A stretch of 64,000 nt of DNA from a bacterium (GCA_030693235.1 JAUYBE010000006.1:2758-66757), one strand, 5' to 3'; counted from the first letter of the stretch, positions 3,781 through 6,430 are shown. Numbers and translations are program-made. The notes: generated from the letters alone by a model not told the origin.

Positions 3781-5778
3781 ATGATACCCGAAGTAAATGG
3801 TTATAAAACAAAACCGGAGTGGTTTCTTGGAAAAGGAAGTTTTGGATCGGTATACAAAGCTGAAAAAGATGGCAAGTTTTATGCTATCAAAATTTTTCAG
3901 TCCGAGTTACTCAAAACGGAATATAAAGACCGGCTTGATCGAGAAATAAAGGCGCTTCAAAAAATTTCTCATCCGAATGTCGTTAAGCTTTACGATTACG
4001 GGACTTTCAAAGATAAAGATTTTGAATATTTCTATATTGTGATGGATTTTGTTGAGGGGCGCCGATTAAAAGATTATGTAGGCGTCATGGACGAAAATAA
4101 AACTGTCAGCGTGATCGAATCCGTGCTTGATACGTTGGGTGCTGTTCACTCGGATGGTATTATTCATCGCGATCTGAAACCAGAAAATATTATGGTGGAT
4201 GCTGGCGGCACCCCAATCATTCTTGATTTTGGTTTAGCAAAACTGATTGATTATAGCTCAATTACGCAAACCGGAGATAGAGTCGGTACTTACTATTACA
4301 TGTCGCCGGAGCAAGTAACGGATAGCAAAAACATCGACGCAAGGTCAGATTATTTTTCAATAGGAGTTATTTTCTACGAACTCTTAACTGGCGTTGTTCC
4401 TTATGACGCAACAAACACACCGGCTCTTATTGACCAGATCAAAAACCGGTATCCGAAAAATCCATCCGAATTAAATGGCAGTATCTCTAACCAAGTTGAA
4501 AACGTAATTCTTAAATTACTCGAAAAGTTGCCTTATAAACGCTTTCAAAGCGTAGCTGATGTAAAATCTGCTCTCCATGCTACGCCGCAATTAAAGCCGC
4601 GGTTATTGAGCCTTGATATACGATTCTTTGTGCGGTTACTTCATACCGAAAAAACCGCGTTTGAGGAAGCTTTAAAAGAAGGGCTAGTTAAACACGTTAT
4701 TTTTCCTGCAAACTTCTTTAAGTTTTATCACCCGACAGTAGTAGTTTTAAGAAATTCAGATATTACCTTTACGACTGATCCAGCAACCAACCGACTTATC
4801 TATACGGCATTTTCCAAAACCGTAGGAGTTCAAGAGTTACCTTACTCTTCTGGCGATGAAGTAACCCCCATTCAAAAAAAAGATTTTCATGCTATTTCTC
4901 AAGTACAAGAATATGTAAAAAAAGTATTAGATTTTCAAATTCAAAATGGCGTAACTGAACTTGCTGCGCCTTTTTTCTTCGCAAAGAATACGTCCGATGA
5001 ATGGTTTAATATAAACCTAAAATTACTCAAGGAGGCAATTGATTATCGCGACGCTCATCATGAAAATTTACCAATCTGGGCGGGTATTTGTATGAACGTC
5101 GAGGGCTGGCATGACGATGATGAAAAGAATGCAATTTTGAATCGTTACGTTAAAACTAACCCCGATGGCTTCTTTGTATACGGCGATCCAATAGGTAATC
5201 AATCAAATTTGACGCAACTTTTTCATTACGGCGACTTCCTACGTAAATTACAGTCCTCATCGAATGTGCCAGTGGTTGCGTGTCGAGTAAGTGGTCTAGG
5301 TCTAATTCTTCTTAGTGCTGGTGTATCGGGCATATCTTCTGGTATGGGTGCGCTAGATAATTTCAAAGAATCTATACTGTGTGATACACAAGAGGGTTAT
5401 GCCGCCGACCCAAGGTATTACATATCGGAGTTATTATCGACGGTTTCTCTAAAAAGAGGTGTTACAACAAAACTTACAGCTATATCAAAATCAACCATCG
5501 GGTCAAAATTAAAATGTAAATGTAAGTTTTGTGTTGACATTTCTTCTGGTGCTGTGAGTCACAGAAATATGAAGCTTCATTTTCTCCAGAGAAGAAGGGA
5601 GGAAATTAATGAACTTGCGAAGATTGATCCGAAGGACAGATTAAATTACATCGGAGATAGAGTTGAACAAGCTCTAAAATATACAAAAACCCTCGCTGGC
5701 GAGGGTATAGAAGTCGGCGATTTTTCCCATTTAGGGACTTGGAGAAGTTTAGTTGAACAGTTTAAGAAGAAAAGCTAA
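3781..5778 (+). CDS. Hanks-type Ser/Thr protein kinase fused to a C-terminal TGT/DpdA-like (tRNA-guanine transglycosylase fold) domain with a CxCxxC...H zinc motif
   Basis: Kinase motifs:
- 'LGKGSFGSV' (Gly loop)
- 'AIK' (VAIK Lys)
- 'HRDLKPENI' (catalytic loop)
- 'DFG'
- 'SPE'

The C-terminal ~400 aa resembles the TGT fold:
- 'YSSGDEV...VLDFQIQNGVTELAAPFF' resembles TGT 'DSGGFQ...LGxDIxMxLD'.
- 'LPIWAGICMNVEGW' resembles TGT 'LFGIVQGG'.
- 'PDGFFVYGDPIG' resembles TGT 'GYAIGGL'.
- The terminal 'CKCKFCVDISSGAVSH' fits the TGT zinc motif CxCxxC..H. Confidence 0.7.
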   Translation: MIPEVNGYKTKPEWFLGKGSFGSVYKAEKDGKFYAIKIFQSELLKTEYKDRLDREIKALQKISHPNVVKLYDYGTFKDKDFEYFYIVMDFVEGRRLKDYVGVMDENKTVSVIESVLDTLGAVHSDGIIHRDLKPENIMVDAGGTPIILDFGLAKLIDYSSITQTGDRVGTYYYMSPEQVTDSKNIDARSDYFSIGVIFYELLTGVVPYDATNTPALIDQIKNRYPKNPSELNGSISNQVENVILKLLEKLPYKRFQSVADVKSALHATPQLKPRLLSLDIRFFVRLLHTEKTAFEEALKEGLVKHVIFPANFFKFYHPTVVVLRNSDITFTTDPATNRLIYTAFSKTVGVQELPYSSGDEVTPIQKKDFHAISQVQEYVKKVLDFQIQNGVTELAAPFFFAKNTSDEWFNINLKLLKEAIDYRDAHHENLPIWAGICMNVEGWHDDDEKNAILNRYVKTNPDGFFVYGDPIGNQSNLTQLFHYGDFLRKLQSSSNVPVVACRVSGLGLILLSAGVSGISSGMGALDNFKESILCDTQEGYAADPRYYISELLSTVSLKRGVTTKLTAISKSTIGSKLKCKCKFCVDISSGAVSHRNMKLHFLQRRREEINELAKIDPKDRLNYIGDRVEQALKYTKTLAGEGIEVGDFSHLGTWRSLVEQFKKKS

Positions 5779-6430
5779 GGAAGCGACTTAGCATCATTTG
5801 TTTAGCAAAAATGCTAACATTATCTTCGTTGTTCTGATTCCTTCGCTTGGGGGATTTTATTTCGATTGTATTGGTGGCAGTATCAAATAATATCAAGCCG
5901 ATATTATATTTATTAAACTCTCTAAAATCAATATTTTTTTTCGCTTCTTTTAAAATTGCTAGGTAGCTTTCATCGGCAAAATATTGATAACGGCGAGCTT
6001 GAACTAAGCCACCCTTGTGATCACTTAATTTAACTTCAATGGCGATTATTTTTTTAATCTGGTTCAATTCATCTTTCTCACCAATTTTTACATAACTATT
6101 CGCACTAATTTTCTTCATATATTGATTATTCACCAAAAGATTCAAATTTTTCTTTAAATTCTGAATATCTAGGGATGGGGAAAAATCTCTAATCTGATCA
6201 AGCGAATAAATCTCACCCTTTTCGAGGCTTATTAATAAATTTAAACAATTAAAATCCGTTAAGGGAGTACGCTTAATGTCATTCTTTCTAAAAGAAAAAT
6301 CTGGCGCAAAAACAAGATCAGCAATCCCATAACCAGCAGAAAACTCGTGGAAGGCAAGATTCGTGCCAAATTCCTTTTTCAAGATCTTGTCGAGTTTCTG
6401 CACAAGAGTTTTTTCGCTAAGATTTCTCAT
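5762..6430 (-). CDS. Hypothetical protein with a PD-(D/E)xK nuclease-like core; convergent with the kinase-TGT gene, with 17 nt of 3' overlap
   Basis: 'GIADLVF' (Asp) and 'IIAIEVKLSD' (E-x-K) are spaced as in restriction-endonuclease-fold proteins. No other family was recognised. Confidence 0.4.
   Translation of the reverse strand: MRNLSEKTLVQKLDKILKKEFGTNLAFHEFSAGYGIADLVFAPDFSFRKNDIKRTPLTDFNCLNLLISLEKGEIYSLDQIRDFSPSLDIQNLKKNLNLLVNNQYMKKISANSYVKIGEKDELNQIKKIIAIEVKLSDHKGGLVQARRYQYFADESYLAILKEAKKNIDFREFNKYNIGLILFDTATNTIEIKSPKRRNQNNEDNVSIFAKQMMLSRFLSFSS

Follow-up and report, generated by a model that had tools for sequence, protein, structure and literature searches.

The window, a stretch of bacterial DNA of 64,000 nucleotides (GCA_030693235.1, JAUYBE010000006.1:2758-66757), contains two convergent genes, one coding for a Hanks-type Ser/Thr kinase fused to a domain that resembles tRNA-guanine transglycosylases (TGTs) and the other for a protein with the fold of PD-(D/E)xK nucleases (Table 1). 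Both ORFs are present as described in an earlier note on this DNA, with the 665-aa reading frame and its smaller neighbor sharing 17 nt in their stop regions (5762-5778). A palindromic hairpin, GCTAAGGAAGCGACTTAGC, is located at 5774-5792 and is terminator-like on both strands. In 10 independent loci, ranging from CPR bacteria to Priestia, the two genes likewise converge and share 4-36 nt at their 3' ends, and the same fusion-protein sequence is found on a second assembly (locus L005). An Rfam search of positions 1-12 kb returned no match to a non-coding RNA, and promoter-like sites occur at chance level (12 found versus 11.5 expected).

Table 1. Features of the two-gene locus, with positions counted from the first nucleotide of the window.
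Feature	Position	Strand	Extent or basis
Kinase::TGT-like fusion gene	3781..5778	+	ORF, 665 aa
Hanks-type Ser/Thr protein kinase domain, predicted active	3826..4590	+	aa 16-270
Predicted TGT-superfamily (beta/alpha)8 barrel with C-terminal Zn subdomain	4573..5775	+	aa 265-665
Asp333-Pro-x-Thr336 motif after barrel strand 3	4777..4788	+	conservation and hhalign
Putative zinc site, Cys579-x-Cys581-x-x-Cys584 ... His600	5515..5580	+	conservation and alignment to TGT Zn motifs
Partner gene, 222-aa PD-(D/E)xK-fold protein with inserted winged helix	5762..6430	-	
Winged-helix insertion in the nuclease core of the partner	6077..6259	-	aa ~58-118
Convergent stop-region overlap and palindromic hairpin	5762..5792	both	

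The N-terminal part of the fusion protein had been described as a complete Hanks kinase, which agrees with its match to Pfam Pkinase (PF00069) over residues 16-256 (E 3.5e-54; 184.4 bits versus a cut-off of 31.7) and with the presence of a Gly loop (GKGSFG at 17), the YAIK motif (34-37) including the VAIK lysine (Lys37), the alphaC glutamate (E55) and the HRDLKPEN (129), DFG (149) and SPE (175) motifs. All of the 90 full-length homologs compared have E55, H129, D131, K133, N136, D149 and G151, and among them R130 and E177 are 99% and the Gly-loop glycines 92-98% conserved. Judged by these residues, the fused kinase looks catalytically competent. The PADLOC PD-T4-6 models match the kinase domain (E 3e-69) without covering anything beyond it, the PADLOC mad6 match is confined to the kinase as well, and we rejected membership in PD-T4-6 and mad6 because these matches are non-specific. 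NCBIfam MAD6 was rejected as well, reaching 163.7 bits against a cut-off of 460, again over the kinase domain only. S. thermophilus has a housekeeping PASTA kinase that also receives the PD-T4-6 label (PMC11514479).

The C-terminal domain had been placed in the TGT/DpdA superfamily based on a series of short motifs, all of which are present in the protein (SSGDE at residue 356, LDFQIQNGVTELAAPFF at 383, PIWAGICMNVEG at 431, DGFFVYGDPIG at 462 and CKCKFC at 579 along with His600). The structural part of this assignment stands. The predicted structure (pLDDT 90) shows a (beta/alpha)8 barrel to which a Zn subdomain is tightly joined at the C-terminal end. In its fold, the domain most resembles structures of the TGT family, and not TIM barrels in general, and it has both the order of the barrel strands and the CxCxxC..H Zn subdomain in common with bacterial TGT (PDB 3UNT/1Q2R). 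By contrast, the DpdA-like identity could not be upheld, and the pocket residues deviate. The PF01702 and NCBIfam TGT models did not match the domain or nine of its relatives even at E values of up to 1, and no model of Pfam, NCBIfam, PADLOC or PHROGs matched the domain, the partner or nine kinase-less relatives. Since no TGT or DpdA model matches, we rejected membership in either family at the level of sequence models; by this measure, the domain is not a DpdA or TGT member. Its identity to bacterial TGT is only 11%. The best PDB sequence match in a profile search was ArcTGT, which aligned over the Zn knuckle with a marginal E value of 0.071, and PDB searches with the single sequence or a CPR profile yielded noise or nothing. 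One relative is listed in UniRef under the name 'tRNA-guanine(15) transglycosylase-l...'. The putative Zn ligands are well conserved among 139 divergent sequences (C579 94%, C581 81%, C584 94%, H600 97%) and align both to the CxCxxC..H motif of ArcTGT and to C302/C304/C307 of E. coli TGT, and the domain is predicted to bind zinc.

The pocket of the barrel was compared with that of canonical enzymes by means of a weak profile alignment to E. coli TGT (hhalign in local mode, collinear, probability 5%, E 0.0077), combined with the secondary-structure register. Its most conserved residues form the Asp333-Pro-x-Thr336 motif (D 91%, P 93% and T 81% in the 139 divergent sequences). In this low-confidence alignment, Asp333 (domain D69) corresponds to D89 of E. 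coli TGT, the Asp of the TDSGG motif and general acid/base (D102 in Z. mobilis), and a conserved Gln in the next helix is common to both proteins. TTDPATN is thus what this alignment sets against TDSGG, and SSGDE, the first landmark listed in the earlier note, is not its counterpart. No residue is aligned with the base-reading Asp of the FDEC motif, which follows strand 4 (D143 in E. coli and D156 in Z. mobilis TGT), and the family displays Ala-Pro(92%)-Phe/Tyr at this point. The nucleophile Asp that follows strand 8 (D264 in E. coli and D280 in Z. mobilis) is weakly aligned with a column of K/S/R/N. A conserved Asp/Glu is located three residues before this column (domain 262, full-length Asp526); it is acidic in 77% of the sequences outside the CPR clade and could rescue catalysis. 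With this residue so close to the nucleophile column, the domain may be an enzyme rather than a sensor.

The replaced base-reading Asp and the apparently non-acidic nucleophile column speak against the proposal that the protein inserts 7-deazaguanines into DNA in the manner of DpdA, and so does the lack of linked preQ0 genes. When QueC/D/E/F, FolE, Tgt and QueA of E. coli were compared with the window and 20 family loci by tblastn, nothing scored below E 0.7, and the Pfam tables of 9 neighborhoods are devoid of preQ0/queuosine pathway genes. Neither queC/D/E/F, folE, tgt and dpd genes in general nor dpdB and dpdC in particular are found in the window or within ~8 kb of the examined family loci.

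The convergent neighbor, previously termed PD-(D/E)xK-like, lives up to this description in its fold, which combines a restriction-endonuclease-like alpha/beta core with a winged helix (wHTH). E29, D38, E132, K134 and Q144 show no exchange among 28 close and 7 very divergent homologs, and at the level of these residues the partner keeps an intact nuclease signature (E..D..ExK..Q). It also shows a weak match to Arcadin-2 (Rkd2; E 2.9e-4).

The pairing of the kinase-TGT gene with the nuclease gene is conserved. The two are adjacent in all 13 of the 13 independent loci with enough flanking sequence, and the same convergent layout recurs on a plasmid of Priestia megaterium. Moreover, they diverge in step, with identities to the window proteins ranging from 83/70% down to about 25/30%. 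Close homologs with the same kinase::TGT-like architecture form 99 clusters, which, together with the 81-97% conservation of the Cys/His site, indicates that these features are not a chance finding. As the earlier note had surmised, this architecture appears to be new, with no description in Pfam, NCBIfam, PADLOC, PHROGs or the literature searched. The TGT-like family as a whole comprises at least 754 clusters at 50% identity, about 15 independent neighborhoods of which were inspected, and extends over CPR bacteria, Bacillota, Actinomycetota and Bathyarchaeia. A bathyarchaeial protein (P0328) is a direct fusion of the nuclease to the TGT-like domain. Some kinase-less members pair with the same nuclease and a PIN gene, and in two loci (L018 and L020) a PIN_3 gene shares ~20 nt with the 3' end of the TGT-like gene, which lacks a kinase. 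RES and Xre/MbcA genes adjoin TGT-like genes on Gordonia and Clavibacter plasmids, and a clade on actinobacterial plasmids has RES-Xre alongside the TGT-like gene instead of a detectable partner nuclease. In one further locus (L008), the partner is frameshifted and the TGT gene intact. When the domain tree was clustered to look for independent origins of the kinase fusion, truncated ORFs were intermixed with true kinase-less forms. The kinase is accessory to a conserved core, which consists of the TGT-like domain and, in most cases, the nuclease.

The cassette was said to lie in a restriction-modification (R-M) and toxin-antitoxin (TA) island, and its surroundings in the window fit this picture, with genes for an EcoRI-family MTase (164-1234), GmrSD_N+HNH (1224-2309), Mrr_cat (7062-7913), NYN (8248-8814) and HTH+SocA_Panacea (9225-9989) proteins. 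The 'decayed hsdM' reported directly upstream turned out to be an intact alpha/beta-hydrolase gene (2388-3587), and the sole hsdM-like sequence of the window is found at about 20.2-21.1 kb. We rejected the hydrolase as a recurring third component, since it shows 28% identity in one locus (L014) and no similarity in another (L016). Serine recombinases abutting tRNA genes are located near the cassette in three loci (L001, L014 and L016), family members are found on mobilizable or conjugative plasmids, and one kinase-less cassette is inserted within a ribosomal-protein operon. Integrative elements and plasmids act as vehicles of the cassette. The fusion is present in only 6 of 185,579 species-representative genomes, with 68-83% identity across different CPR classes. 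Contexts other than defense islands include the his operon in Bathyarchaeia and the housekeeping flanks of one locus (L017). A viral origin was rejected, as IMG/VR contigs and INPHARED phages yielded no relatives; their absence is neutral, but it provides no tie to phage biology.

Among the explanations considered, we give preference, with due reserve, to a mobile two-gene conflict cassette that serves either anti-phage or anti-plasmid immunity or the addiction of its carrier element, a function that we infer from sequence and predicted structure. The organizing part of such a cassette would be the diverged TGT-fold domain with its putative zinc site. Presumably no longer capable of the classical exchange of guanine for 7-deazaguanine, it may still grip nucleic acid and flip a base into its pocket, thereby recognizing an invader-associated nucleic acid, base or nucleotide. 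Recognition would then release the fused kinase, which would phosphorylate host or invader proteins and thus bring about growth arrest; where relatives lack the kinase, this role may fall to a PIN RNase or RES toxin. The partner could represent the DNA-directed arm, with the winged helix binding DNA and the nuclease core cutting it, and act either as a second effector or under the control of the kinase/TGT protein. The overlapping convergent 3' ends and the shared hairpin, finally, would permit a separate yet interdependent expression of the two genes.

Several known systems resemble the cassette in part. DpdA (PDB 7UI4), the DNA preQ0 insertase of the Dpd system, is likewise found in defense islands and mobile elements and, like the window family, is tied to nucleases in a self/non-self logic. 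However, the window family lacks both membership in the DpdA sequence models and nearby dpdB, dpdC and preQ0 synthesis genes, and its cassette differs by the deviating pocket, the kinase fusion and the limitation to two genes instead of a multigene system. The differences from bacterial TGT extend from the pocket to the gene context, with the window protein fused to a kinase and partnered by a nuclease gene rather than by queA or other queuosine genes. QTRT2 (PDB 6FV5), a non-catalytic TGT paralog without the nucleophile, provides a precedent for a TGT-fold protein that combines a Zn subdomain with nucleic-acid binding, although it is eukaryotic, acts on tRNA as the heterodimer partner of QTRT1 and has neither a kinase nor a nuclease partner. 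A TGT fold working on a non-nucleic-acid target is found in Cap10 of type IV CBASS (PDB 9NTN), which keeps its base-reading residues (D73, S74, D122 and K154) and the catalytic D248 and has lost the Zn site (bioRxiv 10.1101/2025.04.06.647259). The window family shows the reverse pattern, with the Zn site kept, the base-reading Asp lost and an apparent deviation at the canonical nucleophile position, and no CD-NTase or Cap9 (QueC) neighbor was found that would place it in Cap10 or type IV CBASS.

With respect to its parts, the cassette is reminiscent of PglW and DndF, in which a PD-(D/E)xK nuclease is likewise combined with an active kinase of the Hanks type and with a further module for sensing or for binding nucleic acids; the authors who described them propose a sensor that calls on the kinase and the nuclease as its effectors. 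PglW and DndF, however, unite all parts in a single giant protein and belong to BREX or Dnd systems of several genes, with an inactive array of STAND or wHTH type as sensor, whereas the candidate sensor of the window family has a TGT fold, its nuclease is encoded by a separate convergent gene, and BREX and Dnd genes are absent. In PD-T4-6 and Stk2, a kinase acts as an abortive-infection effector, whereas the TGT-like domain and the partner described here have no counterpart among the PADLOC models.

The strongest competing explanation, which we nonetheless regard as unlikely, is an R-M-like marking system. Here, an active TGT-like enzyme would mark host DNA by base exchange or excision as DpdA does, perhaps with a base other than a 7-deazaguanine, and the PD-(D/E)xK-wHTH partner would restrict unmarked DNA, leaving kinase or PIN for regulation or a back-up suicide arm. 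The one-to-one pairing of a TGT/DpdA-fold protein with a nuclease diverging in step, the convergent layout that many type II R-M pairs typically have, the selfish, mobile behavior exemplified by the ribosomal-operon insertion and the conserved pocket, with Asp333 and with Asp/Glu526 near the nucleophile position, would all suit such a system, and L008, with its frameshifted partner and intact TGT gene, is what one would expect of a pair whose toxic half, the nuclease, can be dispensed with. It is difficult to reconcile, however, with the loss of the base-reading Asp, the non-acidic residues aligned with the canonical nucleophile, the failure of TGT and DpdA models to match, the lack of preQ0/queuosine, dpdB and dpdC genes in the window and within ~8 kb of the examined loci and the actinobacterial plasmid clade that has RES-Xre in place of a detectable nuclease.

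Less probable still is a TA-type addiction module without a dedicated anti-phage role, which would stabilize plasmids and integrative elements through a kinase, PIN or RES toxin, countered by the TGT-like domain and/or the partner, with its wHTH and nuclease fold, as antitoxin or transcriptional regulator. PIN_3, RES-Xre/MbcA and kinases are classic TA toxins, the overlap between PIN and TGT-like genes resembles a translationally coupled TA operon, the cassette resides on plasmids and recombinase-bearing islands, and the partner's winged helix could mediate autoregulation. Yet, at 400 aa, a Zn enzyme fold whose pocket is conserved far exceeds the typical size of an antitoxin, the invariant nuclease signature of the partner would be needless in a mere repressor, and RES-Xre by itself already constitutes a complete TA pair.

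TGT enzymes act on the tRNA anticodon, which belongs to the same target class as the substrates of many PIN/VapC toxins. It is thus conceivable, if improbable, that the TGT-like domain itself is the effector, damaging cellular or invader tRNA or DNA by excising or swapping bases and being switched through autophosphorylation by the fused kinase, with the partner serving as a DNA-binding regulator or as a co-nuclease that could cut at abasic sites. The conserved Asp333 and Asp/Glu526, which flank the pocket, speak for such an activity, but the deviations in the active site weigh against it just as they do against DNA marking, and the further toxins (PIN, RES) alongside would be left unexplained. 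Least probable is ordinary cellular signaling, in which the TGT-like domain would let a housekeeping Hanks kinase respond to a nucleobase or tRNA metabolite and the neighboring gene would code for an unrelated DNA-repair nuclease: although C-terminal sensor domains are common on bacterial Hanks kinases, PknB-type models score the kinase domain as well as defense models do and some loci have housekeeping flanks, this notion clashes with the sparse, patchy distribution of the fusion at high identity across CPR classes, the variable flanks and the carriage by plasmids and islands, the strict co-inheritance of the pair and the replacement of the kinase by PIN in relatives.

Beyond the conflict cassette that we favor, it is tempting to consider the more doubtful possibility that the TGT-like domain represents an unrecognized, widespread branch of the TGT superfamily and the common core of new toxin-coupled immunity modules. 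Such modules could rely on a new reaction with, or recognition of, nucleic acids, for instance base excision, the exchange of a base other than deazaguanine or the sensing of modified bases or tRNA, and combine it with effectors that can replace one another (PIN, RES or a fused Hanks kinase) and, in most but not all members, a PD-(D/E)xK-wHTH nuclease. TGT-fold proteins were long regarded solely as tRNA-modifying enzymes, until DpdA, which modifies DNA, and Cap10, which conjugates a nucleobase to protein, revealed that this fold has been re-used in immunity. If this wider interpretation is true, the family would represent a third independent recruitment of the TGT fold to immunity, with a different active site, and the first to be wired directly to a protein kinase and swappable toxins. 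Because no Pfam, NCBIfam, PADLOC or PHROG model exists for either the domain or the partner, the family is invisible to current annotation, and pipelines label the protein as 'serine/threonine kinase' or mislabel it as PD-T4-6. As the same architecture is encoded on a mobilizable plasmid of the cultivable species P. megaterium, the hypothesis is directly testable. The cassette would also add a candidate defense system to the CPR bacteria, a group of organisms with small genomes.

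Both ORFs described in the earlier note are present and converge with a 17-nt overlap (see the table), one encoding a fusion of a Hanks kinase to a TGT-like domain and the other a small partner protein. The kinase, reported as complete, occupies the N-terminal 270 residues of the fusion (Pfam Pkinase, E 3.5e-54) and shows all expected motifs: the Gly-loop (residues 17-22), YAIK (34-37), HRDLKPEN (129), DFG (149) and SPE (175). Among 90 full-length homologues, E55, H129, D131, K133, N136, D149 and G151 never vary; conservation is 99% at R130 and E177. As judged from these residues, the fused kinase looks active.

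The remainder of the fusion, residues 265-665, has no match in Pfam, NCBIfam, PADLOC, PHROGs or the PDB sequences. An AlphaFold2 model of this domain, based on an alignment of 26 homologues trimmed to the TGT-like region, reached a pLDDT of 90.1 and a pTM of 0.90 and displays a regular beta/alpha pattern. In a structural ranking, it was closest to bacterial TGT (21.9, 293 residues aligned), followed by QTRT2 (18.9), DpdA (18.2), archaeosine TGT (17.4) and Cap10 (16.4), with unrelated TIM barrels scoring 13.8 or lower. Foldseek likewise returned TGT, QTRT1 and ArcTGT at the top (E ~2e-6, TM 0.51-0.55), barrels other than the TGT type attaining a TM of ~0.38 at most. Moreover, the best PDB sequence match of a profile of 80 divergent members was archaeosine TGT (E 0.071), its alignment falling exactly on the CxCxxC...H motif, and UniRef names one relative 'tRNA-guanine(15) transglycosylase-l...'. 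Because these lines of evidence agree, the TGT fold and zinc knuckle that had been proposed are supported. The C-terminal strings quoted in the earlier note all occur in the protein. We consider the model-based assignment to the TGT superfamily solid.

Conservation across 139 aligned divergent family sequences is at least 80% for Asp333-Pro334-x-Thr336, Leu353, Tyr355, Gln386, Pro397, Gly507, Gly514, Gly521, Tyr547, Ala631 and Trp654 as well as for Cys579, Cys581, Cys584 and His600 (97%); Pro354, between Leu353 and Tyr355, reaches 78%. A local profile alignment with E. coli TGT, whose catalytic residues were confirmed on its own sequence, is collinear across the entire domain and weak (probability 5%). 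It pairs Asp89 of the TDSGG motif with Asp333, rather than with the SSGDE string given as a landmark in the earlier note, the conserved Gln of the next helix with Gln386, and Cys302, Cys304 and Cys307 with Cys579, Cys581 and Cys584. The base-reading Asp143 of FDEC faces a gap opposite Ala-Pro-Phe/Tyr of the family, and the nucleophile Asp264 aligns with a column of Lys, Ser, Arg or Asn. Three positions ahead of this column lies an acidic residue, Asp526 in the window protein and Glu or Asp in 77% of distant members. On this sequence-level comparison, the identity of the nucleophile is uncertain, and we make no claim of catalytic inactivity for the domain. The family thus keeps the zinc site and lacks the base-reading Asp, whereas Cap10 shows the reverse, having retained the base-reading residues and the catalytic Asp and lost the zinc site according to its authors (bioRxiv 10.1101/2025.04.06.647259). 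The domain belongs to neither TGT, DpdA nor Cap10. Since no homologues of QueC, QueD, QueE, QueF, FolE, Tgt or QueA were found in the 64-kb window or within ~8 kb on either side of 20 family loci, the DpdA-like insertion of 7-deazaguanine envisaged in the earlier note is not supported; that the cassette is an RM-like base-exchange system appears unlikely.

Homologues of the partner form ~168 clusters, all without annotation; the protein itself is 100% identical to the product of NCBI locus tag Q8N28_00515, on a 228-kb contig. Its structure model (pLDDT 91.6) shows a nuclease fold with an insertion at residues 58-118 that is matched by many MarR/ArsR winged helices, and Glu29, Asp38, Glu132-x-Lys134 and Gln144 are invariant, even in seven homologues at only 24-29% identity. 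The model and these residues therefore identify the partner, as anticipated, as a PD-(D/E)xK nuclease-fold protein with an intact E..D..ExK signature and a built-in DNA-binding module, and it looks both nuclease-competent and capable of binding DNA. In NCBIfam, its conserved C-terminal core also weakly matches arcadin-2 (Rkd2; E 2.9e-4), a part of the crenarchaeal crenactin system, and the same weak match recurs at aa 68-102 of the archaeal protein P0328. In a Candidatus Jorgensenbacteria MAG (L008), a frameshift splits the partner into two ORFs next to an intact kinase::TGT-like gene that is 83% identical to that of the window, meaning either that the nuclease half is decaying or that the assembly is faulty here.

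Examination of the gene neighbourhood showed that a partner homologue adjoins the TGT-like gene in 13 of 13 independent loci with enough flank, and identity to the window drops together for the two proteins (83/70%, 34/32% and ~25/30%). Nine kinase-fusion loci drawn from metagenome and genome collections have a convergent partner that overlaps by 4-29 nt; in the Adlerbacteria clade (34% identity) it is co-directional. An exhaustive profile search yielded at least 754 family representatives at E <=1e-3 and 263 at <=1e-10, and most members among the matches listed comprise ~400 aa and have no kinase. Kinase-less arrangements include a partner followed by the TGT-like gene (L006), the same order extended by PIN_3 (L018), a TGT-like gene followed by PIN_3 with a convergent partner (L020, between rplC and rpsJ), and, in Bathyarchaeia, one protein (P0328) in which the nuclease core and the TGT-like domain are fused. 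Plasmids of Gordonia and Clavibacter have a TGT-like gene with no detected partner, standing divergently beside a conserved Xre/MbcA-RES toxin-antitoxin pair. The complete kinase-fusion architecture is also present on a mobilizable plasmid of Priestia megaterium, p6_CACC119 (WP_322552809.1 and WP_322552810.1), where the convergent partner overlaps by 36 nt. It is the pair that forms the unit, the kinase being an add-on; the linkage of the pair is obligate, and the toxin-type domains are interchangeable. That such a cassette is purely an addiction or TA module seems quite improbable, and that the TGT-like domain, found beside PIN and RES genes, is itself the toxin is very doubtful.

Several individual loci deserve mention. 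In L020, and also in L021, the kinase-less cassette with PIN_3 interrupts a ribosomal-protein operon in a CPR genome, an odd site for a selfish cassette. In the bathyarchaeial locus L025, beside the his operon, the nuclease::TGT-like fusion comes after three function-unassigned genes of 195, 182 and 181 aa, the second and third of which overlap; these genes may be extra components of the archaeal version. An unannotated RES-toxin ORF on the Gordonia bronchialis plasmid pGBRO01, 61% identical to the annotated Clavibacter RES, completes a RES / Xre-MbcA / TGT-like trio conserved on plasmids of two actinobacterial genera. Finally, the ORF of P0281 (466 aa, on a 10.8-kb ENA contig) combines DnaA sequence, namely the N-terminal domain and the first part of the ATPase, with a TGT-like domain (aa 145-455); this could be a chimera produced by insertion into dnaA, or an artefact of gene calling.

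Coordinates of features in the window and, where a locus is named, in homologous loci
Feature	Position	Strand	Details
alpha/beta-hydrolase	2388-3587		intact; upstream of fusion gene
Kinase-TGT fusion gene	3781-5778	+	665 aa
Partner gene	5762-6430	-	222 aa
Arcadin-2-like core of partner	5765-6430	-	aa 152-204
33-nt direct repeats	6524-6556; 6963-6995		94% identical; each directly 5' of a start codon
ORF behind repeat	6557-6913		118 aa; no family
ORF behind repeat	7062-7913		membrane-anchored Mrr_cat nuclease
HTH + SocA_Panacea antitoxin	9225-9989		overlaps next ORF
ORF	9979-10374		131 aa; no family match
Type I R-M locus	~16216-25962		tblastn with EcoKI subunits
hsdR	~16.2-17.8 kb		tblastn
hsdM	~20.2-21.1 kb		tblastn; sole hsdM-like sequence in window
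hsdS	~24.9-26.0 kb		tblastn
L008, split partner	9190-9865
L020, cassette	8001-10302
L025, three small genes	5167-6996
L031 (pGBRO01), RES ORF	4966-5535	-

The distribution of the cassette is mobile and island-associated. The fusion is 68-83% identical among Jorgensen-, Levyi-, Vogel- and Saccharibacteria and occurs in only six of 185,579 species-representative genomes; its flanking genes are unlike in every locus, and a large serine recombinase abuts a tRNA gene a few kb away in three of them (L001, L014 and L016). No relatives were found in phage and IMG/VR contigs. In the window, the RM/TA island that had been noted is real, the 10 kb around the pair containing an EcoRI-family methyltransferase, GmrSD_N+HNH, an Mrr-type nuclease, NYN and an HTH+Panacea antitoxin. 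By contrast, a decayed hsdM as the upstream gene was ruled out, since an intact hydrolase gene occupies this place and the hsdM-like sequence sits 16 kb off. The 33-nt repeats may be a common regulatory or ribosome-binding element, and the Panacea gene and its overlapping neighbour probably form a toxin-antitoxin pair with an undescribed toxin.

What the cassette does we infer throughout. We tentatively favour a scenario in which the TGT-like domain would recognise an invader-associated nucleic acid or base and thereby gate effectors, which would be the fused kinase in this cassette and PIN or RES in relatives, with the partner potentially serving as a DNA-directed nuclease arm. This parts list resembles the 'grammar' of nuclease, kinase and sensor that has been set out for PglW and for some of the DndF proteins (PMC12839542). 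A role in ordinary signalling is highly improbable.

Consistent with the earlier impression of an undescribed architecture, no model or paper was found on the kinase::TGT-like fusion, the TGT-like clade or the partner, an absence of evidence from incompletely covered literature. Existing tools would label the fusion 'serine/threonine kinase' or PD-T4-6, the latter arising from the kinase domain alone and also falling on housekeeping kinases (PMC11514479). We place the cassette, whose function is putative, among immunity modules that draw on the TGT superfamily. Its TGT-like family is large and lacks annotation, and Priestia offers a host in which it can be tested.
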